This document shows, one piece after another, positions 2,941 to 31,080 of a stretch of 32,000 nucleotides of DNA. Position 1 is the first letter of the stretch. Each line of letters begins with the position of its first letter. Under the pieces are notes generated by a model that ran no database searches, was not told the origin of the DNA, and worked only from the letters and a program-made list of their open reading frames with translations. The stretch is from Flavobacteriaceae bacterium (lineage in GTDB: Bacteria; Bacteroidota; Bacteroidia; Flavobacteriales; Flavobacteriaceae), in the NCBI GenBank assembly GCA_965224465.1, contig OZ245049.1, positions 900,001-932,000 of the forward strand, in the 5' to 3' direction. Made by a program: the position numbers and the translations under genes.

Positions 2941-3051
2941 ACCAATTACAATCCAAAATGATCGATATAAATAGGTTGTTTTACGTTATAGCGTTGTTAA
3001 AAAACAGAATAATTACATTTCTAAACTGTCACTTGGAAATATATTTGGTAT
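2941..3051 (+). repeat. intergenic mosaic repeat, short form (modules M1-M3, 111 nt)
   Basis: Aligns with 26013-26171 minus an exact 48-nt internal segment (M2). It starts ACCAATTACAATCC and ends ATATATTTGGTAT. Confidence 0.9.
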
Positions 3052-3353
3052 AATTCAACTCTTTTATTTACAAACAATAAGCGTATATCATGAAACATGA
3101 TCAATCAGAATTTTTAAATCACTAATGGTGACAATCAAGAAAAGTATTGCATTCTAAGAAATGTATCTCCTCATTTTACGCATACATTTACAGTAAAAAC
3201 AAATCCCAATATCTAATGGTAATAACTCTTAGAAAACAAACGTGGTAGCATGCCTTTATAAAAAGTGAGACTCCTACTAAACTTCCGTAACAAAATTTGT
3301 TTTCTATCGTCTAATTGGTATCTTATAAAATTATCAACTTTAAAACCATTTAT

Positions 3354-4043
3354 ATGTTTAAAAATAGGTTGTTCTTTTTCGCAACTATTTGCTTCCTGAA
3401 CCTTATCACCTCCTGTAGTAATCCAGAATTATCAGCAGATTTTATTTCCAAAACTGAAGGTCGGTATTTATTAAACGCTGATGAATTTATTGAAGTATCC
3501 TATGTAGACAAGGAAATACGGCTTAACTGGGGAGGTTTAAAAAACATTAAGGCAATCCAAATGAATCTCAGCGATTTTTACATCAAAGAAATCAATCAAA
3601 AAATAGAATTTAATCTTCTAGATACACCTATAAATATTCGGGTATTAAAAAAATCAAAGACCGATAGTATTCCTGAAATCTATAAAAAAATACCAAGTAG
3701 TTATAAGTTTGCCTTCGAATATATGGATGCTGGAAATTATGAAAAAGCTGTTGAAATCTATTTAGATATTCAAAAACAAGACAGCCTTAGTCCTATTATT
3801 AATGAAAATATGTGGAATAAAAAAGGCTATCAAAATTTACGTAATAACGCCAACCAAAAAGCTATCCTATGTTTTAAAATAAATGTTGCCTTATATCCCA
3901 AAAGTTATAACGTATACGATAGTCTAGGAGAAGCTTATCTAAAAAAAGGAGACACAGCTTTAGCATTGGTAAATTACAAAATGGCACTTAAAATAAATCC
4001 ATCAATGAGAAGTGCTAAAAAGACAATCAAAAAACTGCAATAA
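3354..4043 (+). CDS. TPR-repeat lipoprotein
   Basis: MFKNRLFFFATICFLNLITSC is a signal peptide with a lipobox Cys. The C-terminal part has TPR-like repeats (YEKAVEIYLD.., YNVYDSLGEAYLKKGDTALALVNYKMALKINP). ATG 3354 is preferred over the TTG at 3315. Confidence 0.65.
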   Translation: MFKNRLFFFATICFLNLITSCSNPELSADFISKTEGRYLLNADEFIEVSYVDKEIRLNWGGLKNIKAIQMNLSDFYIKEINQKIEFNLLDTPINIRVLKKSKTDSIPEIYKKIPSSYKFAFEYMDAGNYEKAVEIYLDIQKQDSLSPIINENMWNKKGYQNLRNNANQKAILCFKINVALYPKSYNVYDSLGEAYLKKGDTALALVNYKMALKINPSMRSAKKTIKKLQ

Positions 4044-4044
4044 A

Positions 4045-4587
4045 ATGACAGACCTAGAATCCCTAAGGTATCCTATTGGGAAACCACAGATTCCATGTAC
4101 TATAACTCCCTCAGATCTAAGATCATGGATTGCTATTATAGAAGAATTTCCTGAAAAACTACAAGGACTTACAAAGAAATTGAATAACAAACAATTGGAC
4201 ACACCTTATAGAAAAGGAGGATGGACAATTCGCCAAGTAATACACCATTGTTATGACAGTCATCACAACAGTTATACTCGTTTTAAATGGGCCTTAACAG
4301 AACTAAACCCACTTATAAAAGTATATGACGAAAAAAAATGGGCGGAACTTTTTGATACAAAACATGCACCCATCCAACTTTCCATAAATAGTTTAATTGC
4401 ATTGCACGCAAAATGGAGCTATCTGTTAAAAGGGATGAGTCCTATGGATTTTAATAAAAAATTTAAGCACCCAGACGGAAACGAGCAAGTATCATTGGCT
4501 GAAAACACAGGAATTTACGCATGGCATTGCGAACATCATTTTACACATATTTCAAATTTAATGACAGCAAATCACTGGAAAACTTGA
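4045..4587 (+). CDS. DinB/YfiT-family metal-dependent hydrolase (putative bacillithiol transferase family)
   Basis: LRYPIGK.., TPYRKGGWTIRQVIHHCYDSHHNSYTRFKWALTE and YAWHCEHHFTHI are the His-rich YfiT/DinB signatures. The ATG at 4045 lies 1 nt after the upstream stop (4041-4043). Confidence 0.85.
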   Translation: MTDLESLRYPIGKPQIPCTITPSDLRSWIAIIEEFPEKLQGLTKKLNNKQLDTPYRKGGWTIRQVIHHCYDSHHNSYTRFKWALTELNPLIKVYDEKKWAELFDTKHAPIQLSINSLIALHAKWSYLLKGMSPMDFNKKFKHPDGNEQVSLAENTGIYAWHCEHHFTHISNLMTANHWKT

Positions 4588-4592
4588 ATATT

Positions 4593-4700
4593 ATACTTAT
4601 TACAATCCAAAATAACCGATACAAACAGGTTGTTTTACGATCTAACGTCATTAAAAACAAAACGATAGCTAAGGCTATCCTTAGATTTTCCACCTAGCTA
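4593..4700 (+). repeat. intergenic mosaic repeat, modules M1-M2 (diverged copy)
   Basis: ATACTTATTACAATCCAAAATAACCGAT...GATAGCTAAGGCTATCC...CACCTAGCTA starts 6 nt after the stop codon of the upstream gene. Confidence 0.85.
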
Positions 4701-4863
4701 TACTAACAATTAAAATCCAAAATGACCGATATAAATAGTTTATTTTACGTGCTAGCGTTGTTGAAAAACAGAACGATAGCTAAGGCTATCCTTATATTTT
4801 CCGCCTAGCTAGAACAAAAAATAATTGCATTCCTAAACTGGCTCTTGGAAATGTATTTGGTAT
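4701..4863 (+). repeat. intergenic mosaic repeat, full form (M1-M2-M3)
   Basis: 4714-4826 matches 26024-26136 at 111 of 113 positions, counted by eye. It ends ATGTATTTGGTAT. Confidence 0.95.
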
Positions 4864-4939
4864 AGATCCCGAAACACAACATGTATTTTCGAAATAATAT
4901 TTCTTGTTTTGACTCATTATCTCCCCCCTTAACAAGGAA

Positions 4940-6553
4940 TTAAACCACGGGTTTCTCCGCAATCATTTCCTTAAACCCCACGTTTGTATTCCCTTTTTTT
5001 TCTGAAACATGACTCATTGCATATTCACTCAAAGCTGTAATAGTTAAACTAGGATTCACCCCTAAATTACACGGGATAATAGAGGCGTCAATTATTTTCA
5101 TATTAGGATAATTAAACACATTAAAATACGGATCAACTGTTCCTTTTGAAGCATCTATCCCCATTGGACAACCTCCAATTATATGTGCAGTACTACTCAT
5201 ATTAAAACCTATTTCTGTAATAGCATTCACTCCAAAACCATTTACTTTTTTAGCATACTTATGCATCACTTTTTGACCGATTGGTATATAGGCAGGTACT
5301 CTTATTTTCCCCTTATTGGATTCTATCCTTAACCCACTACCAAACAGCCCTTTTTTCCAGGTCATTTTTAAAGCATTGTCCAAAGACTGCATGACCAATA
5401 GAATTACAGAGTTTTCTGCCAATTTACTTCCAAAAATCAACCTAAGAAAACGCAATGGATGCTTGACTACTTCTACAGGAAACTTTAATAAACGCAGCCA
5501 TGGAATGGCAGAATCTACAGCCAAACTCCCCATTTTCACCATAGAACTAGAACCGTTAGGAAACTTCACCAATTCTATATGCGTATGATCATCGGGATTA
5601 AATACAGCACTGATAGCAACCCCGTTATTCAATTTTATATCTTTACTTACAACTCCTATTAAGGATTCCGAATTGGTCCGTAAGTTTTCTCCCAGAGTCT
5701 CGGATAACTTTGGAAGTGTCTTATAGGTATATTTTTGTTTAAACAATAAGTCTAAAGTTCCCAAAACACCCCCACTAAAAATAATCCCTTTGGTCTTAAA
5801 CTGTTTTTCATCCTGCTTAAAATACCTTGTACTGCGATATGTTCCAACAGTATATACTTTAGACGCCTCATCAAAACATATTTTATCCACCATGGTTTCA
5901 GCTTTAATCTCAGCTCCGTATACCTGCGCAAAATGCAAATAATTTTTATCTAAGGTGTTTTTCGCATTTTCTCTACACCCCACCATACAACCAGCACATT
6001 CGGTACATCCTTTCCTCAAAGGACCATGCCCGTTAAAATAAGGATCGGTCTCCAACTTAGTATCTCCATAATACACTCCAACAGCAACTCTTGCATAGGA
6101 ATCTTTTCTCCCCATATCCTCCGCTACTTCCTTCAATAATTGATCTTCTATATTATTTGTCTTGGCAGGCGTACTCCCCAACATAAAGTTAGCTGTTTTA
6201 TAAAATGGTTTCAAAACAGTTTCCCAATCTTTAAAATCACACCAAGCAGGATTTGTAAAAAAAGATTTTGGAGGTTTCATGTGTGTATTGGCATATACCA
6301 AACTACCCCCTCCTACTCCAACACCACTCAAAATAAATACTTTTTTAAAAAAAGACAACTTTTGAAACCCAAAACACTTGATCAAAGGCATCCAGAGGTA
6401 CTTTCTAATATTCCAATTTGTTTTAGGGAAATCGGTGGTTTTAAAATGCCTTCCTTTTTCCAATATTAAGACTTTATATCCTTTTTCAGAAAGCCTCATG
6501 GCGGATACACTTCCTCCAAAACCAGACCCCACAATAATATAATCATACACCAT
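4940..6553 (-). CDS. GMC-family FAD-dependent oxidoreductase (cholesterol oxidase-like)
   Basis: The N-terminal Rossmann motif YDYIIVGSGFGGSVSAMRLSEKGYKVLILEKG and the C-terminal GGCPMG..NxxVIDASIIP region are typical of GMC oxidoreductases. The start is set at ATG 6553 (MVYDYIIVGSG) rather than 6655. Confidence 0.85.
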   Translation of the reverse strand: MVYDYIIVGSGFGGSVSAMRLSEKGYKVLILEKGRHFKTTDFPKTNWNIRKYLWMPLIKCFGFQKLSFFKKVFILSGVGVGGGSLVYANTHMKPPKSFFTNPAWCDFKDWETVLKPFYKTANFMLGSTPAKTNNIEDQLLKEVAEDMGRKDSYARVAVGVYYGDTKLETDPYFNGHGPLRKGCTECAGCMVGCRENAKNTLDKNYLHFAQVYGAEIKAETMVDKICFDEASKVYTVGTYRSTRYFKQDEKQFKTKGIIFSGGVLGTLDLLFKQKYTYKTLPKLSETLGENLRTNSESLIGVVSKDIKLNNGVAISAVFNPDDHTHIELVKFPNGSSSMVKMGSLAVDSAIPWLRLLKFPVEVVKHPLRFLRLIFGSKLAENSVILLVMQSLDNALKMTWKKGLFGSGLRIESNKGKIRVPAYIPIGQKVMHKYAKKVNGFGVNAITEIGFNMSSTAHIIGGCPMGIDASKGTVDPYFNVFNYPNMKIIDASIIPCNLGVNPSLTITALSEYAMSHVSEKKGNTNVGFKEMIAEKPVV

Positions 6554-6756
6554 ATTTGTTCCTCTTGATTTAATTTGACAGTATTTACACCAATTATAAG
6601 TTCCAAATATAGGAATTCCAATAAAAAAATACGCCACTAATTCATTATAAATCAAGTATTAAAACTTTTTTTGTATATTTCGATTCTAGTTATTCAAGAA
6701 ATTGAATACAAATAAACTACCTACTAATTAAAAATTAACTTTTAAAAACACCACAA

Positions 6757-7215
6757 ATGAGAACAACTGAGCAATGGTTTGACGAATATGCAGTAAGTCA
6801 TCAAAACACCACAAATAAATCCATTCATTATATCTGTGTTCCAGCTATATTTTTTAGTATAATAGGACTTCTAATGAGCATACCTAATACATTTTTTACA
6901 CATACAACAGGACTAGACAATCCACTCTATATCAACTGGGCAGTTGTTCTCCTGATCCCTTTAATGCTATTTTACTTAAAACTATCCTTTAAAATTTTTC
7001 TGCAAATGCTCTTGTTTTCATTCGTTTGTATCACAGCAAATTACTATATTGGGCTCGATTTTCCCTTATTCACCTTTTCAATCATCACTTTTGCATTGGC
7101 TTGGATAGGGCAATTCTACGGACATCATATAGAAGGTAAAAAACCGTCTTTTCTTAAAGATTTACAATTTCTTTTTATTGGTCCTGCTTGGGTATTTAAA
7201 AAAATGTTTTCATAA
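6757..7215 (+). CDS. Mpo1-like / DUF962 membrane protein
   Basis: EQWFDEYAVSHQNTTNKSIHYICVPAIFF and GHHIEGKKPSF match the conserved His-containing DUF962 (yeast Mpo1/YGL010w-like) motifs. There are four hydrophobic segments. Confidence 0.75.
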   Translation: MRTTEQWFDEYAVSHQNTTNKSIHYICVPAIFFSIIGLLMSIPNTFFTHTTGLDNPLYINWAVVLLIPLMLFYLKLSFKIFLQMLLFSFVCITANYYIGLDFPLFTFSIITFALAWIGQFYGHHIEGKKPSFLKDLQFLFIGPAWVFKKMFS

Positions 7216-7224
7216 AATAAAAAA

Positions 7225-8922
7225 ATGTTAAAAAAACTAATTGCTATTTTGTTTTTGTTTGGATTACAAACACACGTATTGAGTATTAATTCTTTCATTT
7301 TAAAACAGCAATCTATTGATACTATTACTCCTGTAAAGAATATAAAAAAACAACTGACACCCAAAGAGATAAAGGATCTTAAGATTACAAATGTTGATTT
7401 TAATACCGCTACTTGTTTTCAACTTATGAAAGGAGTTATATTCAATGCAGGAGATAAGAAACCAATGTACGACGTACATATAATTCTCAGCTTAGATAAT
7501 AAGATCTCACAAGAAGTAATTACGAATAAAACAGGCCGCTTTACGCTCAAACTTTTATGCAACAAAACCTATGATTTAAAGATTAAAAAAACTGGATTTG
7601 AAGACCAGTTTATCACTTTTAAATCGGACATAAAATCAAATACTACTATTAAAAAAGATTTTCTACTTCAAGGCGCTTATTGTTACCAAACAATAAGTGG
7701 TAACATCACTTCATCAAAAGAACGATCCTTTATAAATAACGTTACGGTAAGCCTCCTCCAGAACAACCAAGTTATAAAAACGGTTCAAACCTTAGAAGAC
7801 GGCACCTATTCTTTTAGCTTAGATTGTTCTAAATCTTACACTATAAAAGCAATAAAAGACAGTTTTCACGGCAACTCCATATCATTTAACACATCCCTAG
7901 TGCCACAAACTGCATTGGTAAAACACATCCAACTAAAAAAAATAGATTGCTATAAAACAATATCAGGAACTGTTTTAACTAAACAATTAAAAAAGACAAA
8001 AAACCTTAATCATTTAGATGTAAGCATTGGGGAATTAAACCCACTGGTGGGATTAAAAAATGTGGAGGTTTCAATTTCTAAAGATGGGGAGCAAATCAAA
8101 TCTAGTCAGACAAATTCGAATGGCACATTTACATTCACTATTCCCTGTAATTCTACTTACACTTTAGGCTTAAAAAAAGAAAACTACAATGTGGTTAGTA
8201 AAAAAATTGAAATAAATTCCGACAAAAAAGAAACACAACACTTTGACATACAACTCTCCAAAAAAAAATGCATGCAAATATTAAGTGGGGTTGTCAAAAA
8301 CTCAAAAAACCAAGCAGGAGAATCAAATGTGCTATTAAAACTCCTAAATAACAACCTTGTTATTTCTAAAACCACAAGCGCTACAGACGGTAGTTATACC
8401 TTTAAAACAGATTGCTACAAATCTTATAAAGTAACTGCGTCAAAAAAGAATTTTACTGTTGGTATACAGTATTTTGTTGCTGAAAAAAAACACAATGCTA
8501 CAATCAAAAAAATAATAAAAATAAATCCTCTAAAGGAAATTACATACATCAAAGGCTCACAAAATCTAAAGCTAAACCCAAACAACTTAACCTTTATCTT
8601 AAATAAAAAGGACCTGACTGATGCCCTTATTAAAGAATTGAGAAAGGTGATAATCTTAATGAAAAAAAATACTTCTATAAAACTAGAAATTAAAGTTCAT
8701 ACTGATAGTAGAGCTGATGACAACTTAAACATGACATTGTCTAAACAAAGAGCAGAAACCATATTTGACTACCTAACTACTAGAGGAGTTCCTAAAGAAA
8801 GACTCGCAACGGATGGCTATGGAGAAACACAGCTACTCAATAAGTGTGCTAACGGAGTAAAATGCAGTAATTTTGAACATCTGAAAAATAGAAGAATTGA
8901 TTTTATTGTGACCGATAAATAA
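7225..8922 (+). CDS. OmpA-family protein with four CarboxypepD_reg-like repeats
   Basis: Signal peptide MLKKLIAILFLFGLQTHVLS. Four repeats of about 90-100 aa follow, each framed by two Cys (C.Q.ISG ... G.F.F.L.C...Y). The C-terminal OmpA/peptidoglycan-binding domain reads HTDSRADDNLNMTLSKQRAETIFDYL..GYGETQLLNKC..NRRIDF. Confidence 0.85.
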   Translation: MLKKLIAILFLFGLQTHVLSINSFILKQQSIDTITPVKNIKKQLTPKEIKDLKITNVDFNTATCFQLMKGVIFNAGDKKPMYDVHIILSLDNKISQEVITNKTGRFTLKLLCNKTYDLKIKKTGFEDQFITFKSDIKSNTTIKKDFLLQGAYCYQTISGNITSSKERSFINNVTVSLLQNNQVIKTVQTLEDGTYSFSLDCSKSYTIKAIKDSFHGNSISFNTSLVPQTALVKHIQLKKIDCYKTISGTVLTKQLKKTKNLNHLDVSIGELNPLVGLKNVEVSISKDGEQIKSSQTNSNGTFTFTIPCNSTYTLGLKKENYNVVSKKIEINSDKKETQHFDIQLSKKKCMQILSGVVKNSKNQAGESNVLLKLLNNNLVISKTTSATDGSYTFKTDCYKSYKVTASKKNFTVGIQYFVAEKKHNATIKKIIKINPLKEITYIKGSQNLKLNPNNLTFILNKKDLTDALIKELRKVIILMKKNTSIKLEIKVHTDSRADDNLNMTLSKQRAETIFDYLTTRGVPKERLATDGYGETQLLNKCANGVKCSNFEHLKNRRIDFIVTDK

Positions 8923-9206
8923 GCAATCATTACACAAAAACGTATGATTTTGACCCCCATTATATGTTTAGTAAATTTCACTAAATTAGAGATACAATAA
9001 CTTGGACACAAACCCATCAAATACATTACAAGCTATTTGTAAAAATAGCTTGCCATAGCAAAGGCTATATTAGGCTATTTTAACTATTTAGTATAAAATA
9101 TAATTCCATATAAATATACGGGTTTAACAACTTAAATAGACATAAGACCCAAACAAATCTCGCATTAATAAAGGATTAAAAACTATCTTAGCAAAAAAAA
9201 CAAAAA

Positions 9207-9659
9207 ATGAGAATTACTGCCCTTATCCTATTAACCCTCTTTATAAGCAATTGTTCTAGTAGCAAATCAAGTACAGTAGCCAAGTCTACAAAAATCAATT
9301 TCGAACCTATCATCCAAGAAACTCAAGGAGGATTTGCAATGGCAAAATTCTTGATTATAAAAGAAGAAAATACGGTCATAAACATCTACAATCAGATCAA
9401 TAAAATACACACTCCCGGTTTTAAGATCCCTACAATAGATTTTAACAAAAAAATGCTCATCGCTCTTTTTATGGGAGAAAAAAATACTGGTGGCTTTCAT
9501 ATTTCTGTTGACCATATACTAAGATCTTCTAATAAAACAACAGTATTCGTCAAAGAAACAGCACCTCAAGGAATGGCAACCATGACCATTACATCACCTT
9601 TTTGCTTTGTTCTTGTAGATAAAAGCGACTCCAAAATTATTTTCAAAAAAACACAATAG
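9207..9659 (+). CDS. lipoprotein, PrcB-C-terminal-domain-like
   Basis: The lipobox LFISNC and the central IALFMGEKNTGGFHISVDHI resemble PrcB_C family proteins of Flavobacteriia. The family assignment comes from memory of similar proteins. Confidence 0.55.
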   Translation: MRITALILLTLFISNCSSSKSSTVAKSTKINFEPIIQETQGGFAMAKFLIIKEENTVINIYNQINKIHTPGFKIPTIDFNKKMLIALFMGEKNTGGFHISVDHILRSSNKTTVFVKETAPQGMATMTITSPFCFVLVDKSDSKIIFKKTQ

Positions 9660-9745
9660 CACAACTATTGTTCTCTTTTCTAAAGCAAAAAGAAAGACTT
9701 GATTTTACATTGGTCATTTTAAACAGGAGTTTAAAACAATGCATG

Positions 9746-9824
9746 ATACCAATTAAAATCCAACATAACCGATATAGATCGTTTATTTTATTTTATTTTA
9801 CGTTCTAGCGTTATTAAAAAACAA
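9746..9824 (+). repeat. intergenic mosaic repeat, module M1 only
   Basis: ATACCAATTAAAATCCAACATAACCGATATAGATCG...TTACGTTCTAGCGTTATTAAAAAACAAG carries a 10-nt (ATTTT)x2 expansion. It ends at the same breakpoint where M2 is missing in the 2941 copy. Confidence 0.85.
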
Positions 9825-9828
9825 GTTA

Positions 9829-9872
9829 GAAAAAAAGCTGCTATTTTATAACAAAATAGCAGCTTTTATTTT
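9829..9872. terminator. bidirectional rho-independent terminator between convergent genes
   Basis: Perfect 13-bp stem AAGCTGCTATTTT (9835-9847) / AAAATAGCAGCTT (9853-9865) with an A-run upstream and T-rich sequence downstream. Confidence 0.85.
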
Positions 9873-9887
9873 ATAACAAAAAAGAGT

Positions 9888-10541
9888 CTAGTTTCCTTTT
9901 TCTGCATCTTTTAAAAACTGTGCCAATCCACTATCTGTTAAAGGATGTTTAAACAATCCATCAATTGCTTTTAAAGGTCCCGTCATTACATCTGCGCCAA
10001 TCTTAGCGCAATCCATAATATGCATGGTATGACGTACAGATGCAGCTAAAATTTGAGTTTCGAATCCATAAACATCATAAATATGTCTAATTTCAGCAAT
10101 CAATCCTAAACCGTCCGTAGAAATATCATCCAAACGACCAATAAACGGAGACATATAAGTAGCTCCTGCTTTCGCAGCTAACAATGCTTGCCCTGCAGAG
10201 AAAATTAACGTACAATTGGTTTTAATTCCTTTATCAGAAAAATATTTAATAGCTTTAATCCCTTCTTTAATCATTGGGATTTTCACTACAATCTGAGGAT
10301 GTAAGGCAGCCAATGCTTCCCCTTCTTTTACCATCCCATCAAAATCAGTTGAAATAACTTCTGCGCTCACATCACCCTCTACTAAATTACAAATAGCCAC
10401 GTAGTGATTCAAAATATTTTGTTGCCCAGTAATGCCTTCTTTAGCCATTAATGAAGGATTGGTAGTTACTCCGTCCAAGATACCTAAGGCTTGTGCTTCT
10501 TTTATCTGATCTAGATTTGCAGTATCAATAAAAAATTTCAT
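9888..10541 (-). CDS. fsa: fructose-6-phosphate aldolase / short (type 3B) transaldolase
   Basis: MKFFIDTANLDQIKEAQALGILDGVTTNPSL and the 217-aa length are characteristic of the family. Confidence 0.9.
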   Translation of the reverse strand: MKFFIDTANLDQIKEAQALGILDGVTTNPSLMAKEGITGQQNILNHYVAICNLVEGDVSAEVISTDFDGMVKEGEALAALHPQIVVKIPMIKEGIKAIKYFSDKGIKTNCTLIFSAGQALLAAKAGATYMSPFIGRLDDISTDGLGLIAEIRHIYDVYGFETQILAASVRHTMHIMDCAKIGADVMTGPLKAIDGLFKHPLTDSGLAQFLKDAEKGN

Positions 10542-10615
10542 AGTTGTGTAGTTTTGTATAAATTAGTTAGCATCAGAATTCTAAATGCCAGTTCGTTGCA
10601 AAAATAGTCAAATGA

Positions 10616-11419
10616 TTACAATTTATAGTGATTCATCAATAATTTTTCATACCAAGTATCTGGTAAAATACGTTTTAAGACAATGGAAAATTTTTGAATA
10701 AAATCTCCAACTTTATAATGGATTTTAGGTGATTTTTCTTCTAAGATAGCACCAATAGCTTTTGCCATTATTTTAGGATCATTACCTCCATCCACATGTG
10801 CATTCATAAGGTCTAAATTTAATTGATAAGAAGCTTCATAAGGCGAATTTCTAAGTACGGGAGCATGGTAACGTCCCGCAGCAATATTGGTTGCAAAATC
10901 TCCTGGAGCAACATTTGTAATATGAATTCCAAATTGTTTTACTTCCATTCGCAAAGCTTCTGTCACTAATTCTAGTGCTCCTTTAGACGCAGAATAAATA
11001 CCACGAAAAGGCAATCCCATATAGCCCGCAATAGACGTCACATTCACAATAACCCCTGATTTTTGAGAACGCATTTGCGGTAAAACTGCTTTCATTACAT
11101 CAATAGCACCAAAAAAATTGGTATCAAACAAACGACGCATTTCATCCGTGTCTGTTTCTTCTATAGGCCCCGTAATTCCCATACCAGCATTGTTAATTAA
11201 CACATCCAGTCTCCCTTCATTTTTTATGACCGTTGCAACGGCACTTGCAATAGTAGACTGTTTCCTAACATCCAAAGAAACTAATGGAAAAGGATGATTT
11301 TCTATACGACTGGCATCTCTACTTGTCCCATAGACCTTAAATCCTTTAATTGTTAAATATTCTCCGACTGCTTTTCCTATTCCAGAAGACCCTCCAGTAA
11401 TTAACACTACTTTACACAT
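10616..11419 (-). CDS. SDR-family oxidoreductase
   Basis: TGGSSGIGKA cofactor motif, NNAG, and the catalytic YSASK (YxxxK). Confidence 0.9.
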   Translation of the reverse strand: MCKVVLITGGSSGIGKAVGEYLTIKGFKVYGTSRDASRIENHPFPLVSLDVRKQSTIASAVATVIKNEGRLDVLINNAGMGITGPIEETDTDEMRRLFDTNFFGAIDVMKAVLPQMRSQKSGVIVNVTSIAGYMGLPFRGIYSASKGALELVTEALRMEVKQFGIHITNVAPGDFATNIAAGRYHAPVLRNSPYEASYQLNLDLMNAHVDGGNDPKIMAKAIGAILEEKSPKIHYKVGDFIQKFSIVLKRILPDTWYEKLLMNHYKL

Positions 11420-11558: not shown

Positions 11559-11561
11559 AAA

Positions 11562-11659
11562 AAATGGCAAGCGACCTACATCACACCGCTACAACCTAAT
11601 ACCCTTGCTGCGTTCCCGCCCTGGGGGATTCAAAGGGAGCTAGTTGTGTAGGACTTGCC
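11562..11659 (-). ncRNA. ffs: signal recognition particle RNA (small, 4.5S type)
   Basis: The only GC-rich island in its 416-nt gap. The minus strand folds into one long helix, GGCAAGUCCUACA... pairing with ...UGUAGGUCGCUUGCC. The apex CCAGGGCG-GGAA-CGCAGCAAGGGUA carries the conserved GNAR tetraloop and the AGCA domain IV motif. A promoter box and a terminator flank it. Confidence 0.8.
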
Positions 11660-11663
11660 GTGG

Positions 11664-11671
11664 CAAATGTA
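11664..11671 (-). promoter_or_regulatory. -7 promoter box TACATTTG for the SRP RNA
   Basis: Exact TAnnTTTG match on the minus strand. A TTG lies 19 nt further upstream. The predicted start falls on the first G of the SRP helix, near 11659. Confidence 0.6.
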
Positions 11672-19006: not shown

Positions 19007-19008
19007 TT

Positions 19009-22662: not shown

Positions 22663-22689
22663 TACACTATTATAGAAAATGTTAATATT

Positions 22690-23115: not shown

Positions 23116-23154
23116 AAATGGTTGTACTTTTGCACAAAATTAGAAATTAAATAT

Positions 23155-23739
23155 ATGGTGTTACCTATTATCGCTTACGGCGATCCTATATTGAGAAAAG
23201 TGGGTCTTGATATCGACAAGGATTATAAAGATCTAAAATCTCTTTTGAAAAACATGAAAGAGACCATGGAAAACGCCCATGGTGTAGGTTTGGCTGCTCC
23301 ACAGGTAGGACGTGCTATTCGCTTGTTTTTAGTTGACGCATCTCCTTTTGCAGAAGATGATGACTTGGATCAAAAAGAACGTGACTTTCTAGCGACGTTT
23401 AACAGGACATTTATCAATGCCAAAATCACACACGAAGAAGGCGAATCTTGGTCGTTTAACGAAGGCTGCCTAAGCATCCCTAATATTCGTGAAGATGTAT
23501 TTAGACAACCAAAAATAACCATACACTACTTGGACGAAAATTTTAAAGAACACACCGATGTTTTAGAAGGATTAGCGGCGAGAATAGTACAACACGAATA
23601 CGATCATATTGAGGGAATTTTATTTACCGACAAGGTATCATCCCTCAAAAAACGATTGTTAAAGAAAAAATTAGAAAACATTTCCAAAGGAAAAATTGAT
23701 ATTGATTACAGAATGAAATTTCCTTTATTAAAAAGATAA
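23155..23739 (+). CDS. def: peptide deformylase
   Basis: The three deformylase motifs are present: GVGLAAPQVG, EGCLSIP, QHEYDHIEG. The start is at ATG 23155 (MVLPIIAYGDPILR). Confidence 0.9.
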   Translation: MVLPIIAYGDPILRKVGLDIDKDYKDLKSLLKNMKETMENAHGVGLAAPQVGRAIRLFLVDASPFAEDDDLDQKERDFLATFNRTFINAKITHEEGESWSFNEGCLSIPNIREDVFRQPKITIHYLDENFKEHTDVLEGLAARIVQHEYDHIEGILFTDKVSSLKKRLLKKKLENISKGKIDIDYRMKFPLLKR

Positions 23740-23748
23740 GAAAGATAT

Positions 23749-24177
23749 ATGGATTTAAAAAAGATAGTTGCCGTAAGTGGTAGACCAGGATTGTACGAAA
23801 TAAAAGCACAATCTAAAGCAGGAATTATTGTAGAATCATTACTAGATGGAAAACGTTTTCCGATCACAGTTACTCACAATGTGAGTGTACTAAATGATAT
23901 TGCTATATACACCTACGAAGAAGAAGTGCCTCTGCGTGAAATTTTCAAAACAATCTTTGAAAAAGAACAAGGAGCAGCTACAATTACGCATAAAGCAAGC
24001 AGTAAAGAATTAACGACTTACTTTAGCGAGATTTTACCTAGCTACGATGCAGAACGCGTTTATGCTTCTAACATCAAAAAAGTAATACAATGGTATAATT
24101 TATTGGCTGAAAAAAGTTTTGATTTCACTGCGATTCCTGAAGAAGAAGAAGAAAGTGAAGAAACAGCTAAAGCATAA
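23749..24177 (+). CDS. DUF5606 domain protein
   Basis: KIVAVSGRPGLYEIKAQSKAGIIVESLLDGKRFP resembles the flavobacterial DUF5606 proteins usually found between def and mazG. It has an acidic C-terminal tail. Confidence 0.65.
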   Translation: MDLKKIVAVSGRPGLYEIKAQSKAGIIVESLLDGKRFPITVTHNVSVLNDIAIYTYEEEVPLREIFKTIFEKEQGAATITHKASSKELTTYFSEILPSYDAERVYASNIKKVIQWYNLLAEKSFDFTAIPEEEEESEETAKA

Positions 24178-24947
24178 TGAATACACGTAAACAACAACTC
24201 GATGCATTTGAACGATTGTTGGATATTATGGATGAATTGCGATTGAAATGTCCTTGGGATAAAAAACAGACATTTCAATCGCTTCGCCATCTTACCATCG
24301 AAGAAACCTATGAACTGGGCGATGCCATTTTGGACAATAACCAAGATGAAATCAAAAAAGAATTGGGAGACTTGTTGTTACACATCATTTTCTATGCAAA
24401 AATAGGTTCAGAAACAGATGCTTTTGACATTGCAGATGTTGCCAATGAGATCTCTGAAAAACTTATTTTTAGACATCCCCATATCTATGGAGATGTAGTG
24501 GTCGCCGATGAAGAAGAAGTCAAAAAAAACTGGGAAAAACTAAAGTTAAAAGAAGGAAGATCTTCGGTGCTTGAAGGTGTGCCTAAATCTTTACCAGCTC
24601 TTGTAAAAGCTGCAAGAATTCAAGAAAAAGTAGCAGGTGTAGGTTTCGAATGGAATCAAACTTCCCAAGCTTTGGATAAAATAAAAGAAGAAATTAGAGA
24701 ATTAGAACAAGAAATCGCTCTCAAAAACCAAGATGCCATTGAAGATGAATTTGGCGATGTTTTATTCTCCTTAATAAATTACGCTCGTTTTATCAAAGTA
24801 AATCCTGAAAATGCTTTAGAACGTACCAATAAAAAATTTATTAGCCGCTTCCAATTCATTGAAGCAAAAGCAAAAGAAAAAGGAAAGGAAATTACAGACT
24901 TATCCCTGTCAGAAATGGAATCTATTTGGTTGGAAGCCAAAAAATAA
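24177..24947 (+). CDS. mazG: nucleoside triphosphate pyrophosphohydrolase MazG
   Basis: Tandem MazG domains with LRLKCPWDKKQTFQSLRHLTIEETYEL, ELGDLLLHI and EFGDVLFSLINYAR. The ATG overlaps the upstream TAA (TAATG). Confidence 0.9.
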   Translation: MNTRKQQLDAFERLLDIMDELRLKCPWDKKQTFQSLRHLTIEETYELGDAILDNNQDEIKKELGDLLLHIIFYAKIGSETDAFDIADVANEISEKLIFRHPHIYGDVVVADEEEVKKNWEKLKLKEGRSSVLEGVPKSLPALVKAARIQEKVAGVGFEWNQTSQALDKIKEEIRELEQEIALKNQDAIEDEFGDVLFSLINYARFIKVNPENALERTNKKFISRFQFIEAKAKEKGKEITDLSLSEMESIWLEAKK

Positions 24948-24985
24948 TTTCATTTCTAAACCTTCACTTAAAATTTAATTGGTAT
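24938..24985 (+). repeat. intergenic mosaic repeat, module M3 only (degenerate)
   Basis: CAAAAAATAATTTCATTTCTAAACCTTCACTTAAAATTTAATTGGTAT overlaps the last codons and the stop of mazG. Confidence 0.75.
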
Positions 24986-25081
24986 TGCTTTACTCCTTTA
25001 TTTACGAGAATAAACACGTTTAAACTTTAGTTAAAACCGTTTAATTTGATTAAATTAGTTCTTCAACAAAAGAACAAATTT

Positions 25082-25813
25082 ATGCCAAAAACACTCATTA
25101 TTACTGGCGGTAGTAAAGGACTTGGACTTTCCATTGCCAAACGATTTCACAAAAAAGGATTTCGTGTTATTTCTATTGCTAGAAGTAAAGTAAACAAGCT
25201 TTACGAAATAGAACAATACCAATGTGACCTTTCAATTTCAGCTGACTTAAAGGCTACTTTTCTAACTATATTTAAATCGATAAACGAACAAGAGACAGGA
25301 TCTATTGTTATGATAAATAATGCAGGAATGCTTGGTGAAGTAGACACCTTAGGAAATGTCCCTTTAGAAAGCATCCAACAGACCATACAATTAAACCTGA
25401 CCGCTCCAATGCAGATAAATTCCCTATTTATCAAACATACCGAAGATTGGAATTGTCGCAAAAACATCATAAATATTTCTTCGGGAGCCGCCAGTAATGC
25501 ATATGGAAGTTGGAGTAGCTATTGTGCTTCTAAAGCTGGTTTAGACATGATGTGTAAAGTAATTTCTAAAGAGCAAAAAAACAATAAATACCCTATAAAA
25601 ATATCCAATATATACCCTGGCGTAGTAGCTACTGGCATGCAAGTAGAAGTACGTGCTGTAGCTCCTGAAAAATTTAAATCGTCCCAACGTTTTATAGAAT
25701 TTCATTTAAAAGGAGAACTCTCAGATCCAAATGATGTTGCCAAAGTAATTTATAAACTCTACAAAAAGAAAAAACTTACCGGTGGTAAAATTATTGATGT
25801 ACGAAAAATATAG
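25082..25813 (+). CDS. SDR-family oxidoreductase
   Basis: TGGSKGLGLSIA cofactor motif, NNAG, catalytic YCASK. The start is at ATG 25082 (MPKTLIITGG). Confidence 0.85.
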   Translation: MPKTLIITGGSKGLGLSIAKRFHKKGFRVISIARSKVNKLYEIEQYQCDLSISADLKATFLTIFKSINEQETGSIVMINNAGMLGEVDTLGNVPLESIQQTIQLNLTAPMQINSLFIKHTEDWNCRKNIINISSGAASNAYGSWSSYCASKAGLDMMCKVISKEQKNNKYPIKISNIYPGVVATGMQVEVRAVAPEKFKSSQRFIEFHLKGELSDPNDVAKVIYKLYKKKKLTGGKIIDVRKI

Positions 25814-25850
25814 CATGCTGTAACTCCAAACATCCTTCTTTATGTTGGTG

Positions 25851-26011
25851 ATACCAATTACAATCCAACATAACCAATATAAATAGTTTATTTTACGTTC
25901 TAGCGTCGTTAAAAAACAGAACGATAGCAAAGGCTATCCTTCTATTTTTTGCCTAGATAAAACAAAAAATAATTCTATTTCTAAACCGCCACTTGGAAAT
26001 GTATTTGGTAT
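25851..26011 (+). repeat. intergenic mosaic repeat, full form (M1-M2-M3), copy A
   Basis: Runs from ATACCAATTACAATCCAACATAACC to GGAAATGTATTTGGTAT. The M1-M2 part is visibly more diverged from the adjacent copy than the 4701 copy is. Confidence 0.95.
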
Positions 26012-26012
26012 C

Positions 26013-26171
26013 ATACCAATTACAATCCAAAATGACCGATATAAATAGTTTATTTTACGTGCTAGCGTTGTTGAAAAACAGAACGATAGCTAAGGCTATC
26101 CTTAGGTTTTCCGCCTAGCTAGAACAAAAAATAATTCTATTTCTAAACCATCACTTGGAAATTTAATTGGT
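26013..26171 (+). repeat. intergenic mosaic repeat, full form (M1-M2-M3), copy B
   Basis: Starts 1 nt after copy A. It is nearly identical to 4714-4826 over M1-M2. Confidence 0.95.
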
Positions 26172-26275
26172 AGAACAAAAAATAATTCTATTTCTAAACC
26201 GCCACTTGGAAATTTAATTGGTAGAACAAAAAATAATTCTATTTCTAAACCGTCACTTGGAGATGTATTTGGTAT
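26172..26275 (+). repeat. two further tandem 51-nt M3 units (the array 26121-26275 has 3 units of period 51)
   Basis: Units start at 26121, 26172 and 26223 (AGAACAAAAAATAATTCTATTTCTAAACCNNCACTTGGAAAT...). An additional M3 3'-end remnant lies at 26287-26306 (CAAGAAATACAATTGGTAT). Confidence 0.95.
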
Positions 26276-26316
26276 AAGAAACAGGCATCAAGAAATACAA
26301 TTGGTATTGCTACTAC

Positions 26317-26353
26317 ATAAAAAAGCCAGTAATTATATAAATTACTGGCTTTT
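26317..26353 (-). terminator. rho-independent terminator of valS
   Basis: Perfect 12-bp stem AAGCCAGTAATT (26323-26334) / AATTACTGGCTT (26340-26351). A U-run follows on the minus strand (A-run 26319-26324 on plus). Confidence 0.85.
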
Positions 26354-26371
26354 AACATTTAACTTTTATGT

Positions 26372-28999
26372 TTACAAGGCTACCAAACTAGCCTTTAAAG
26401 TCATTATTTTAGCTTCTGCATCTGCTAATTTATTACGTTCAATATCAATCACTTTTGCAGGTGCATTGTTTACAAAACGCTCATTACTAAGTTTTTTCTG
26501 AACAGAAATTAAAAAGCCTTGGGTATATTTTAATTCTTCTTCCAACTTCGCTTTCTCCGCCTCTACATCTACTGCTCCAACCATCGGAATAAAATACTCA
26601 TTTGATTTTACACGGTAACTTAAAGCCCCTTCCACTTTCCCTGTCACGTATGCCAAGTCAGAAATGTTTCCCATTTTTTGAATGACAGTGTCAAATTTAG
26701 TTGTTGCATTTTCGTTATTCATAACAAACAACTCAATGGTATCTTTAAAAGCGATATTTTTATCTTTTCTAATGGTTCTAATCCCCGAAATCACCTCTTT
26801 AACTAGCCCAAACTCTTTTAACAGAACAGTATCTATCGATTTAGTTTTCGGGTATGTTGCAATAATCAATGCTTCTTCTGTAGTTCTCGTTGTAATATGT
26901 TGCCATAATTCCTCGGTAATAAACGGCATATATGGATGTAATACCTTTAAATTATCTTCAAAAAACGCTATAATTGCTTTGTAAGAAACAGCATCTATAG
27001 GTTGTTGATAGCCAGGTTTAACCATTTCCAAAAACCATGATGAAAAATCGTCCCAGAATAATTTATACAGGCTCATCAAAGCTTCACTGATTCGGTATTG
27101 CTCAAAAGAAACATCAATATCAGCAATTACTTGTTGAAATCTAGCAGCATACCATTCGATAGCCATTTTTGCTGATTCAGGTTGTTCAATTTCTTCAGAA
27201 ACTTCCCATCCTTGCACCAATCTATACGCATTCCAAATCTTGTTTGAGAAATTACGCCCTTGAGCGCACAATTCTTCTTCGAACAACAAATCGTTTCCTG
27301 CAGCAGCACATAATAGCATTCCAACACGAACACCATCTGCACCGTATTTTTCCATCAATTCAATAGGATCCGGAGAGTTCCCTAAAGATTTAGACATTTT
27401 TCTTCCTTGTTTATCTCTTACAATTCCCGTAAAATAAACATTGCTAAAAGGTTTCTCGTTTTTAAATTCATAGCCCGCAAACACCATTCTAGCTACCCAA
27501 AAGAAGATAATATCTGGACCGGTCACTATATCATTTGTAGGGTAGTAATATTTAAAATCTTCATTTTCTGGGTTGCGAATCCCATCAAAAACAGATATAG
27601 GCCATAACCAAGAAGAGAACCAAGTATCCAATGCATCTGGGTCTTGGGTTAAATCGGCAACCTTTATTTCTTTACCTAACTTTTCCGAAGCCAAGATGCT
27701 TGCTTCTTCTATGGTTTCTGCAACAACAAAATCGTTTACACCTTCATCATAAAAATAAGCAGGAATTTGATGCCCCCACCACAGTTGACGAGAAATATTC
27801 CAATCGCGAATATTTTCTAACCAATGTTTATAGGTACTATTATAATGTTTTGGGTATAATTTAATTTCTTCATCCTCCAATACTGCTTTTAAGGCAGGAG
27901 TAACAATCGTATCCATTTTCAAAAACCATTGGGCAGATATTTTTGGTTCAATAACGGCTTTGGTACGTTCAGAGGTTCCCACTTTATGCAAGTGTTGTTC
28001 TACTTTTACCAAGCAACCCAATTCTTTTAATTCAGCCGTAATCTCTTTACGAACTACAAAACGATCTTTACCTTGGTAATGCAATCCAAATTTATTTAAA
28101 CTTGCATCATCATTTAAAATATCAATTACTTCTAGTTGATGTTTCTCTCCGAGTACTTTATCATTTTGATCATGGGCTGGCGTTACTTTTAAACATCCAG
28201 TACCAAACTCAATATCTACATATTCATCCTCTATAATAGGAATAGCTCTATTTGCGATAGGCACAATAGCTCTTTTTCCTTTTAAGTGAGAAAAACGCGG
28301 ATCGTTTGGGTTGATACAAATAGCCGTATCTCCTAAAATAGTTTCGGGTCTAGTAGTCGCCACCGTTAACACTTCTTCAGAACCTTCAATCTTATAATTT
28401 ATATAATATAAATTACCTGTTTTTTCTTCAAAGATTACTTCCTCGTCAGATAAGGTAGTTTGTGCAGATGGATCCCAATTCACCATTCTATAGCCACGAT
28501 AAATCAATCCTTTTTTATACAAATCAACAAAAATGGTGTTCACAGCCTCGCTTAAATCAGCATCCATGGTAAACTTGGTACGCTCCCAATCACAAGAAGC
28601 ACCCAATTTTTTTAATTGTTCTAAAATAATTCCTCCATGCTTATCTGTCCATTCCCATGCGTGTTTTAAAAACTCTTCTCTTGTCAGATCAGACTTATCA
28701 ATTCCTTCTTCTTTTAATTTAGCAACTACCTTTGCTTCGGTCGCTATAGATGCATGATCCGTTCCAGGTACCCAACAGGCATTGAATCCTTTAAGACGTG
28801 CTCTTCTGATTAAAACATCCTGAATTGTATTGTTCAACATATGTCCCATGTGTAAAACTCCAGTTACATTTGGAGGTGGAATTACAATTGTATAGGGCTC
28901 TTTATCATTAGGAGTGGAATGAAAATAATTGTTCTTCATCCAATAGTCGTACCATTTATTTTCAACCTCTAGTGGGTTATATTTTGTTGCTAAGTTCAT
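26372..28999 (-). CDS. valS: valine--tRNA ligase
   Basis: 875 aa with a class I HIGH-type motif ([11 protein letters not shown]), KMSKS, and a C-terminal coiled-coil typical of ValRS. Confidence 0.95.
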
Positions 29000-29026
29000 T
29001 TTGGTCTAATATTTGCAAATAGAGAA

Positions 29027-29034
29027 CAAATGTA
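29027..29034 (-). promoter_or_regulatory. -7 promoter box TACATTTG for valS
   Basis: Exact TAnnTTTG match on the minus strand, 27 nt upstream of ATG 28999. Confidence 0.55.
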
Positions 29035-29110
29035 CAATTATAGTACTAAACTAAAAATTTTTTAAAACTTAAAAAAAGACTAGATTTACAATCTAAAAAA
29101 AACAGAAATC

Positions 29111-29545
29111 ATGAAAAAATTATTTACCCTATTTTTTATAGGAACTATTGCTTTGTCAATGAATGCTCAAGAAAAATCTACAGCTACAGTAGTAGATCCA
29201 AATGCACCTGTATTTGAATTTGAATCAGAAGTAATTGACTATGGAAAAATAGAATATAAGGCAGATGGGCTAAGAACTTTCAAGTTTAAAAACACGGGAA
29301 AATCTCCATTAATTATTTCTCGTATTCAATCTAGTTGTGGATGCACCACTCCTAAAAAACCTGAAGCACCAATTATGCCAGGAGAAACAGGAGAGATTGA
29401 CGTAAAATACGCTACAAATCGTGTAGGAGGTTTTTCTAAAACCATCACCGTATACTCAAATGCTACGGAAAATGCAAAACGTTTACGTATCAAAGGAATT
29501 GTTGGAAAAAACCCAGCAGTTGCAAAAAAGAAATCTTCCAAATAA
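29111..29545 (+). CDS. DUF1573 domain protein (secreted)
   Basis: Signal peptide MKKLFTLFFIGTIALSMNA. F.F.N.G..PL.I..I.SSCGCTTP is the DUF1573 signature. Confidence 0.8.
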   Translation: MKKLFTLFFIGTIALSMNAQEKSTATVVDPNAPVFEFESEVIDYGKIEYKADGLRTFKFKNTGKSPLIISRIQSSCGCTTPKKPEAPIMPGETGEIDVKYATNRVGGFSKTITVYSNATENAKRLRIKGIVGKNPAVAKKKSSK

Positions 29546-29560
29546 AAGGAATTTAATTAC

Positions 29561-29598
29561 AAAAAAAAGACTCCGAATTATCGGAGTCTTTTTTTTTT
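29561..29598. terminator. bidirectional rho-independent terminator
   Basis: Stem GACTCCGA (29569-29576) / TCGGAGTC (29581-29588), with 8 A upstream and 10 T downstream, between convergent genes. Confidence 0.9.
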
Positions 29599-29606
29599 GG
29601 ATACAT

Positions 29607-30947
29607 CTAAATTACTTTTTTCAATCTAAAGCTATAACTCTTTTCAATTCCATTTCTAGACACTTTAATTTTAAATTTACGATTTGGCCTGCTATAAAAC
29701 CGATGGATTATTTCCTCTAATTTAAAATGATGAGCTGCTTTGTTATTTATAGACAATAACACATCTCCTTTACGCAAACCTACCTGGTATGCAGGAGAAT
29801 TTTCACGAATAGAAAAAATCTTATATGATGGTTTAAAAATAAAATTATAGGTATGCTTCAATAAAATATTCATGTTACCATTTTCTGAATATCGATCGGG
29901 TTTGGGATTTGAAATATTCTGACGTTGTCTTACCAATTCTTGTCCATTGTACACCAACTCTATACCACTCATATTGTAATTAAAAGCCCGCTGATACTTT
30001 GGTCCTTTTTTTAAATACACCCTAGCATTTTTATAGTCAAAAACTACCCTAAACCTCCCCAGCACCATCCCACCAATACTTCCATTCCTATCCAAATGTT
30101 TACGAGCAATTACAATAGCGCTTGAATCAGGATAAGAAACCGTCGCTTCTTTTAAATGGTAATCCCCTAATATAAGCTTGTGAACTTTACTTCTTTTACC
30201 AAAAATTATCCCACTCAATCCTTCTCCTAAATAATCCTCAAAATAATTCTCTGGAGAAACAATCTGTTTGTGACTCCCTTCAAAAAGCCACAAAGCATCA
30301 CTTCCTCCAGAATCTATTAATAATTTCATCCGTACAGGGGAAGTCTCTTTTTTAAACTGAACATGTACATAGATATACGGTTTTTTATTAAAAAATGTCA
30401 ACTCAAATTTTTTAAATTTTCGTATTTTTTTCTTCTTAAATTTTTGATGCTTGTAGAACGTTATTTTTTCTTGACCATAATTTATCTCAACTACAAAATC
30501 TTTCATCAAATCATAGCCAATAATCCCATGAATAGTCAACCCTAACTTTGCAGACAAATCAAAATCATCATCTATTATAAAAAGTAAATTCTGGGCTACA
30601 CCCAACATGTTTTTAATTTTAAAAGTATTATTTTTGGAGAGCAGTGCATGCACAGGCTTGTTAGCACCTAAACCTCTTATTTTTATCTTCTTCACCTCGC
30701 GTAAATCCAACGAATCTATTTGATTTAAATTAAAAAGCATTGTCCGACTCACCCCTGTATCTAAAATAAAGTTCAATAATTTACCATTTACCTCAATGGG
30801 GAGAATTATTAAATTATTTTTATTGATAAAAGAGACCTGCTGTTTCTCTTTGTTTCCAGTCAAAAAAAACTTTCCTTGCCCAAATAAAGGCTGAAAACAC
30901 AGTAAGAATACCGTTATTAAAACAAAAATAAAACTAGGTAATTTCAA
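29607..30947 (-). CDS. secreted protein with two retropepsin-like aspartic protease lobes and a C-terminal PDZ domain
   Basis: Signal peptide. The first lobe has LD63TG with GIIGYD, and the second has ID212SG with GSIGGM. The C-terminal PDZ motif is SPAYQVGLRKGDVLLSINNK. The start is TTG, and the first in-frame ATG is at Met70, past the signal peptide and the first catalytic motif. Confidence 0.75.
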   Translation of the reverse strand: MKLPSFIFVLITVFLLCFQPLFGQGKFFLTGNKEKQQVSFINKNNLIILPIEVNGKLLNFILDTGVSRTMLFNLNQIDSLDLREVKKIKIRGLGANKPVHALLSKNNTFKIKNMLGVAQNLLFIIDDDFDLSAKLGLTIHGIIGYDLMKDFVVEINYGQEKITFYKHQKFKKKKIRKFKKFELTFFNKKPYIYVHVQFKKETSPVRMKLLIDSGGSDALWLFEGSHKQIVSPENYFEDYLGEGLSGIIFGKRSKVHKLILGDYHLKEATVSYPDSSAIVIARKHLDRNGSIGGMVLGRFRVVFDYKNARVYLKKGPKYQRAFNYNMSGIELVYNGQELVRQRQNISNPKPDRYSENGNMNILLKHTYNFIFKPSYKIFSIRENSPAYQVGLRKGDVLLSINNKAAHHFKLEEIIHRFYSRPNRKFKIKVSRNGIEKSYSFRLKKVI

Positions 30948-30971
30948 TGGTCAGGTTTTTAGATACCTAAG

Positions 30972-31014
30972 ATACAAAACACAGCTATAATTAGCGAATA
31001 ATTAGGATCTATTT
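30972..31014 (+). repeat. direct repeat, copy 1 (partner at 31161-31203)
   Basis: ATACAAAACACAGCTATAATTAGCGAATAATTAGGATCTATTT matches its partner at about 37 of 43 positions, counted by eye. Confidence 0.8.
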
Positions 31015-31046
31015 TACCTCTCCCTAGAATGCAGCAACAACATTAA

Positions 31047-31080
31047 TACAAATACATTTCCAAGTGTCGGTTTAGAAATG
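31047..31080 (-). repeat. intergenic mosaic repeat, module M3 core in inverted orientation
   Basis: The reverse complement reads CATTTCTAAACCGACACTTGGAAATGTATTTGTATT. Confidence 0.8.

Follow-up and report, generated by a model that had tools for sequence, protein, structure and literature searches.

The Correia elements (NEMIS) of Neisseria, like ERIC/IRU and RUP, are intergenic imperfect palindromes of about 100-160 bp with inverted ends of ~26 nt. They lie near gene ends, are co-transcribed as hairpins and fall into size classes, some full-length and others with internal deletions, and the Correia elements duplicate TA (2 bp). The BOX elements of Streptococcus pneumoniae have parts in a fixed A-B-C order, one of which, the middle box, is amplified to a variable copy number; partial forms exist, the element forms a stable hairpin, and it is thought to be moved in trans. 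[quoted passage not shown] Their usual target site duplication (TSD) is TTA/TAA (PMC6327408). In Porphyromonas gingivalis, resident ISPg elements are matched by the ends of the MITEs BrickBuilt, MITE239, MITE464/PgRS and MITE700, which are IS5-family ends (GAGACC... or ACGTCAG...); the TSDs of these MITEs are irregular (PMC4596501). MITEs as a class span about 50-800 bp, are abundant in Bacteroidota, and number 81,380 distinct elements in an automated census of 46,051 genomes (PMC11602168). Described here are intergenic repeats in a 32,000-nt stretch of a Flavobacteriaceae bacterium (contig OZ245049.1, positions 900,001 to 932,000), which as a whole is termed the window. They are copies of one 159-bp palindromic unit, and are very probably members of a new family of palindromic MITE that is moved in trans by a DDE-type transposase.

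Among the described systems, the Correia, ERIC and RUP elements and the BOX elements show the closest anatomy. The Correia, ERIC and RUP elements too are dispersed long palindromes with size classes. However they have no sequence similarity to the window repeats and belong to other taxa, and the duplicated target is TWA (3 bp, where W is A or T) as opposed to the TA of Correia elements. The three-part anatomy in fixed order, the partial forms and the hairpin that takes in the whole unit are shared with BOX elements, but in the window it is the right arm (with a 51-nt period) that is amplified, TSDs and nesting are explicit, and again sequence similarity is not found. The P. gingivalis MITEs are likewise intergenic elements of Bacteroidota, with internal tandem repeats in some and with nesting that obscures some TSDs (PMC4596501); the ends found here are unrelated to theirs, and the TSD is regular. 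With Tourist-like MITEs the repeats share short length, lack of coding capacity, AT-richness, terminal inverted repeats (TIRs) and a 3-bp TTA/TAA duplication, but the host here is a bacterium, and the TSD is the single feature that makes the link. The repetitive extragenic palindromic (REP) sequences and bacterial interspersed mosaic elements (BIMEs) of proteobacteria are also clustered intergenic palindromes, and differ in unit size, orientation grammar and TSD.

The 159-bp unit and its copies in the window

An earlier note on this DNA had listed non-coding loci made up of three sequence modules, M1, M2 and M3. All of these loci exist and can be seen in the raw sequence. A repeat finder places them in families of 3-7 copies within the window, and a degenerate pattern search of the window detects 6 M1, 4 M2 and 8 M3 matches where 0.00-0.01 are expected from 100 shuffles. 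The genes of the window are housekeeping genes, as judged by translations and by the Pfam labels of orthologues.

M1, M2 and M3 are not independent of each other but belong to a single 159-bp non-coding imperfect palindrome, in which M1 forms the left arm, M2 the centre with the inner part of the right arm, and M3 the outer part of that arm. The unit and its ends are observed directly: it begins and ends 5'-TACCAATTACAATCC...GGAAATGTAATTGGTA-3', or, with longer ends shown, 5'-TACCAATTACAATCCAAAATRACCG ... CGGTCACTTGGAAATGTAATTGGTA-3'. The inverted outer ends that had been claimed for the full form were confirmed, and reach ~27 nt (TACCAATTACAaTCCAAaaTGACC vs TACCAATTACAtTTCCAAgTGACC). In copies from metagenome-assembled genomes (MAGs), 12-13 nt are perfectly inverted (TACCAATTACA...) inside a ~27-nt imperfect terminal repeat; the TIRs of MITEs have at least 10-15 bp. 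The centre of the unit is a hairpin, GATAGC-NNNG-GCTATC, and the whole unit folds as one long hairpin, with -37.9 kcal/mol (z -6.6) on the plus strand and -51.4 kcal/mol (z -7.5) on the minus strand. In addition, a full-length profile hidden Markov model (HMM) of the unit matches its own reverse complement (E 1e-10). Stop codons are present in all six frames.

Module HMMs made from the window copies detect the canonical M1-M2-M3 form of ~159 bp at ten further loci, and the module order is always M1-M2-M3 and never permuted. The BIME-like interpretation of the earlier note, with modules that occur independently and reshuffled, is thus not upheld: the order is fixed, and elsewhere the canonical unit is one 159-bp palindrome. 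Every variant is a deletion, nesting, adjacent insertion, tandem duplication or truncation of this unit.

The full-length profile HMM finds every major window locus, with E values of 3e-52 to 3e-6. Its matches total ~0.98 kb of 32 kb (about 3%), close to the ~1 kb of repeat first estimated. The copies are given below, with the corresponding HMM matches in brackets.

2940-3050, plus strand: copy A, left arm (M1) joined straight to right arm (M3), centre (M2) missing (2941-3010 plus 3008-3053).
4594-4700, plus strand: copy B1, left arm and centre (M1-M2), truncated before the right arm (4592-4702).
4704-4862, plus strand: copy B2, full 159-bp unit (TAACAATT...TTTGGTA), abuts B1, flanks TAC / TAG (4704-4865).
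9038-9109, plus strand: possible remnant, centre and start of right arm, heavily decayed (marginal, HMM E 0.067).
9747-9824, plus strand: copy C, a left arm alone, inside which TTTTA is expanded (9745-9823).
24948-24984, plus strand: copy D, right-arm remnant directly after the MazG stop codon at 24945-24947 (24935-24987, E 2e-6).
25852-26010, plus strand: copy E1, full 159-bp unit, flanks TGA / TCA (25849-26014).
26014-26172, plus strand: copy E2, full 159-bp unit, 3 nt (TCA) from E1 (26012-26174).
26173-26274, plus strand: two more right-arm units with a 51-nt period; the array ends ...TTTGGTA, then TAA (26169-26224 and 26221-26277).
26287-26306, plus strand: possible right-terminal-repeat fragment, GAAATACAATTGGTA (region 26279-26310, E 3.2, not significant alone).
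31046-31081, minus strand: copy F, right-arm remnant in opposite orientation, in a divergent spacer upstream of an Asp_protease/PDZ gene (31081-31046, E 3e-6).

Target duplication, nesting and dispersal

When the ends are taken as TACC...GGTA, 18 copies possess both ends. A perfect 3-bp direct repeat is observed flanking 10 of the 18, and consists of TTA/TTA in seven copies and TAA/TAA in three. The mixed pair TTA/TAA was found in none, so the flanks repeat each other directly and do not continue the inverted repeat.

The boundaries of the unit are fixed by a nested insertion at locus L002 (loci from other genomes carry L numbers), where one copy lies inside the centre of another. Removal of the inner 159 bp (5084-5242) together with one TTA restores the outer copy, which then aligns without gaps to two independent copies, at L004 and L013. 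The empty site is in effect reconstructed in this way, and with it the limits of the unit and the 3-bp duplication are both fixed. A second form of the element bears on what is needed for spread. It consists of the two terminal repeats only, in 57 nt, and is 100% identical at two loci of MAG NORP150 that have different flanks, each with TTA/TTA. Thus the ends are sufficient for spread.

The orthologous regions of relatives were obtained via proteins in the same 90% clusters and via homologues of valyl-tRNA synthetase (ValRS). In these regions (L016-L027 and L034-L037), the gene order is the same as in the window, no module match is found, and the spacers are 120-420 nt shorter; presence/absence polymorphism is shown. 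The SDR-ValRS spacer has 125-188 nt in relatives vs 558 nt in the window, and the spacer from the PrcB_C-family gene to FSA has 108 nt in a relative vs 229 nt in the window. The convergent DinB_2-family and GMC oxidoreductase genes overlap by 4 nt in the closest relative (L026 14278-14281), and the gap between them in the window is 352 nt (4587-4940), filled mostly by B1 and B2.

Other differences were seen between the window and these relatives. In a NORP167-like scaffold the ValRS-SDR spacer has 598 nt (L019 6190-6787), contains no modules and holds another insert. NORP129 has a different intergenic repeat of ~120 nt with the core AGAACCCATGTAAGCACTCGTTACACTCGTTCTCACATGAATTTATTTTAATCA, unrelated to the 159-bp element, which is tandem beside the SDR gene (L022 6400-6830) and is found again at a contig end (L034 13370-13420). 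In the window, a 565-aa open reading frame (ORF) at 7225-8922 on the plus strand lies between the Mpo1-like and PrcB_C-family genes, and in L026 this position is occupied by a tRNA_bind gene of 114 aa, which looks as if one gene had replaced the other.

The dispersal of the family was surveyed with a degenerate M1 pattern scanned over one genome per species of GTDB, and the counts are lower bounds. At least 15 stretches are found on different contigs of the MAGs NORP150, NORP167, NORP129 and NORP351. All MAGs among the listed M1 matches come from one study (North Pond), and comprise the Flavobacteriaceae NORP150, NORP167 and NORP129 and one contig binned as Labilibaculum, NORP351; the MAGs of Flavobacteriaceae thus number three or four. 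Flanking sequence at the MAG loci is shared neither with the window nor among the loci themselves. The family is thus not confined to the window. The source genome (5.24 Mb) comes from a lineage that neighbours Lutibacter. The identity of its ValRS is 81-83% with Lutibacter species and 92-94% with the NORP MAGs. The element has spread in the intergenic DNA of a few deep-sea Lutibacter relatives.

The contig binned as Labilibaculum sp. NORP351 (JAESUW010000033.1, 9.6 kb, 29.8% GC) is assigned to a different order, and carries a copy (L014 2869-3026) that is 92-94% identical to NORP150 copies. Two explanations offer themselves, mis-binning of the contig and transfer of the element.

Identity among copies within a genome differs from one genome to another. 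It is up to 97% in NORP150, 87-91% among the window copies, and 72-79% in NORP167, whose copies have a 23-nt insertion. These differences indicate genome-specific subfamilies of different ages, and the NORP150 copies suggest recent activity.

A local segmental or tandem duplication confined to the region could be proposed for the window repeats, in view of the tandem arrays detected by Tandem Repeats Finder (period 111 x1.9 at 4599-4811, 162 x2.0 at 25851-26172, and 51 x3.2 at 26120-26281). However copies are present on the at least 15 unrelated contigs of other genomes, and neighbours within the window are no more alike than distant copies: E2 is 91% identical to B2 and only 88% to the adjoining E1. 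Repeated insertion at the same place is thus a better explanation of side-by-side copies than a recent duplication of local sequence, and the probability of a purely local origin is negligible.

A second alternative is a REP/BIME-type system spread by a RAYT (Y1, IS200/IS605-like), or an IS200/IS605-derived palindrome-associated element inserted as single-stranded DNA. The DNA is indeed palindromic and intergenic, partial "modules" occur, a GGTAG motif is present at some right ends, and 5/6 window loci are on one strand. The unit however has 159 bp with 27-nt TIRs, whereas REP hairpins are 20-40 nt long and have a GTAG head. Copies that adjoin each other are arranged head-to-tail on one strand and do not alternate in orientation, and the 3-bp target duplications are not made by Y1 single-strand transposition. 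It should be noted that the statement that all but one copy share one orientation is correct as such, but the copies amount to only 6 independent loci, 5 to 1. A replication-linked orientation bias, as the IS200/IS605 idea would have it, was considered and rejected: the local GC skew of the element strand has both signs, and element orientation has no consistent relation to it. This alternative is very improbable.

With these alternatives set aside, a MITE is the reading that we prefer. The family displays the features of MITEs: 159 bp (57 bp in the mini form), no coding capacity, TIRs, a TSD, many dispersed copies, and presence/absence among genomes. The MITE-like part of the initial interpretation, a dispersed intergenic family with inverted ends, is retained, now with a defined unit, defined ends and a TSD.

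Copies at gene ends and a possible role in RNA

Several window copies show how the unit has been altered. In copy A, M2 was lost through an internal deletion between A-rich microhomologies. The first base of this copy is mutated (AACC vs TACC), its flanks are AAC / TAA, and no intact target duplication is present. Around copy A there are ~430 nt of extra non-coding DNA (2700-2940 and 3055-3315) that have no counterpart in the 157-nt orthologous spacer of L026, and that show neither an Rfam hit nor similarity to the modules. Copy B1 has TTA in front of it and starts 6 nt past the DinB_2-family stop codon. Copy C is situated after the PrcB_C-family stop codon and before the native terminator hairpin (9828-9868); the orthologous spacer of L026 is without copy C.

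For copy D, an M3 match had been placed at 24938, but the first ~10 nt of that match overlap the MazG stop region. As this region is conserved in relatives that have no element, the remnant really extends from ~24948 to 24984. The site has ~22-30 nt extra vs the NORP129 orthologue. At the junction of the two full units E1 and E2, the right end of E1 and the left end of E2 together form a 50-nt hairpin, and the extra right-arm units at 26173-26274 are a tandem amplification of the E2 right arm. Copy F sits within ~190 nt that are missing from relatives L034, L036 and L018. A 43-nt direct repeat (86%) at 30972-31014 and 31161-31203, the two parts 189 nt apart, flanks copy F.

Two minor items of the first list, at 9055-9068 and 26287-26306, are present in the sequence, but neither is significant alone. 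The first is the hairpin ATAGC-AAAG-GCTAT, held by a region (9038-9109) with 67-71% identity in the repeat family. Both this region and 26279-26310 could be decayed remnants.

The gene context was assessed at the 18 loci with genes called on both sides: 10 are co-directional, 7 convergent and 1 divergent. An orientation bias linked to genes, which first appeared as 15/19, was rejected: where the flanking genes converge or diverge, the context by its nature says nothing about orientation, and only the co-directional contexts count, with 7 sense vs 3 antisense, which is not significant. Some copies lie exactly at the end of a gene. At L008 (6974-6976) and L015 (4635-4637), the TAA stop codon of the upstream gene is itself the left target duplication, and at L009 (2348-2369) an ORF now ends ~20 nt inside the element. 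That divergent (promoter) spacers hold few copies, and that copies are placed right after stop codons, is consistent with purifying selection in combination with the TWA target.

The location near gene ends raises a third alternative, that the repeats are a structured RNA family under selection, either a small RNA gene or a cis-acting module of the 3' untranslated region (3'-UTR) or terminator, with mobility secondary. The unit folds strongly on both strands. In every copy that bears M2, the central hairpin followed by a T-run matches a weak bidirectional terminator-like consensus. Copies are mostly downstream of genes, as the context counts show, and several lie between a stop codon and a native terminator, so that they are probably transcribed. 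Long-hairpin pairing is kept in 85% of cells in an alignment of 14 full copies, vs 35-48% when the partners are slid.

Against a function in RNA, however, the covariation score is 0.052 vs 0.050 in shuffles, 199/500 of which reach the observed score, and the RNAalifold covariation term is unfavourable. Since covariation is not above shuffles, the palindromy is taken as a legacy of the family consensus, with no sign that it is maintained by selection. In addition, the 57-nt ends-only form has spread without the central hairpin, the genes alongside retain terminators of their own that relatives also conserve, and target duplications and nesting are properties of DNA transposition. No Rfam family matches the repeats. 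In the Rfam comparison called for at the outset, with Flavo-1 included, the only hit in the window at gathering thresholds is the signal recognition particle (SRP) RNA at 11561-11667. In permissive mode Flavo-1 reaches 14.8 bits vs a threshold of 42, and other hits are chance matches to miRNA hairpins. Sigma-70-type promoters in the two stretches where the element clusters lie (2500-5000 and 24800-26500) are not enriched over shuffles, in a scan that is not valid for Bacteroidota promoters. A structured RNA as the primary nature of the repeats is distinctly unlikely.

The SRP RNA hit is a gene of the Bacteroidales-type small form on the minus strand (106 bits vs threshold 55).

A role at the RNA level may also have been acquired later, by a palindromic MITE. 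In that case the MITE would not be purely passive. It might be the Tourist analogue of bacteria, moved by an undescribed TWA-specific transposase of Bacteroidota, and where it had inserted at TAA stop codons or just behind them, it might have been co-opted to serve housekeeping genes as a bidirectional terminator or as a module for 3'-UTR stability. Co-option might, for example, serve to separate convergent gene pairs whose counterparts in relatives overlap. The weak terminator-like centre, the location bias toward 3' ends and the TSDs at stop codons permit co-option but do not demonstrate it, and we hold this extended proposal to be unlikely.

The putative transposase and significance of the family

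The transposase, its family and any effect of the copies on transcripts are inferred. In the proposed mechanism, a DDE-type transposase encoded elsewhere in the genome would bind both terminal repeats and insert the unit at T-W-A trinucleotides with a 3-nt stagger, and repair of the stagger would duplicate the target as TTA or TAA on either side. Internal deletion produced the M1-M3 form (2940-3050) and the 57-nt ends-only form of the MAG, insertion beside or into an earlier copy the arrangements at 4594-4862 and 25852-26172, and tandem amplification of the right arm the array at 26120-26281. Truncation and decay left the remnants at 9747-9824, 24948-24984 and 31046-31081. Most surviving copies are downstream of genes, and some sit exactly on TAA stop codons, regenerated by the duplication; those at gene ends add hairpin-forming sequence to 3' regions.

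Four observations weigh against a MITE moved by such an enzyme. A search for an autonomous element or a transposase whose ends match, which took in the window, ~330 kb of related loci, plasmids, phages, viral contigs and JGI metagenome contigs, was negative. None of the window copies has a perfect target duplication, and the TSD evidence comes from MAG copies. The relatives used for comparison are only 73-86% identical in DNA, so that empty sites are not exact to the nucleotide, except in the nested case. Finally, the ends of the element start with TACC, as opposed to the G-rich termini typical of IS5 or PIF/Harbinger; the PIF-like TIRs listed in PMC6327408 are G-rich (GGG/GGC...).

The searches for a parent element were as follows. 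In agreement with the earlier note, the window contains no transposase that could be found, and its gene content includes no RAYT gene. A TIR scan with <=3 mismatches over the window and related loci returned only the known copies and 4 isolated weak matches, and an all-against-all blastp of 131 ORFs (window and L001-L015) revealed no multi-copy protein. The ORFs beside solo left arms in L007 and L015 show no sign of being a parent insertion sequence, having no multi-copy match in that blastp and no surrounding TIR pair. In viral contigs the M1 pattern has 0 matches. In JGI metagenome contigs the 20-nt left end has 6 matches, all of them by chance, inside coding sequence and with M1 not continued. 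A blastn search of plasmids and phages with the full unit gave no match, and a search of plasmids with the 36-nt end gave chance matches only (E >=1). A search of the full-text literature, the supplements of the 2024 MITE census being outside it, found no paper that contains any of three diagnostic sequence strings of the element or that deals with repetitive elements of Lutibacter. The element had originally been noted as unrecognised, and this still applies with respect to Rfam, the literature, phages and plasmids.

By the sequences listed in two papers, the ends (TACCAATTACA) differ both from the IS5-family Bacteroidota ends (PMC4596501) and from the PIF TIRs (PMC6327408). The family is a new MITE family of an ordinary and very common kind, and it changes no concept. 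As MITEs are abundant in Bacteroidota, another family is expected rather than surprising.

Elements of the IS3 and IS30 families also make 3-bp duplications. With the ends and the TSD of the element now defined, the genome can be masked and can be searched for the parent transposase. The element explains why spacers between conserved housekeeping genes exceed those of sister genomes by hundreds of bases, and it is a likely cause of contig breaks in the North Pond MAGs. Its copies are insertion-polymorphism markers for a poorly known subseafloor lineage of Flavobacteriaceae.

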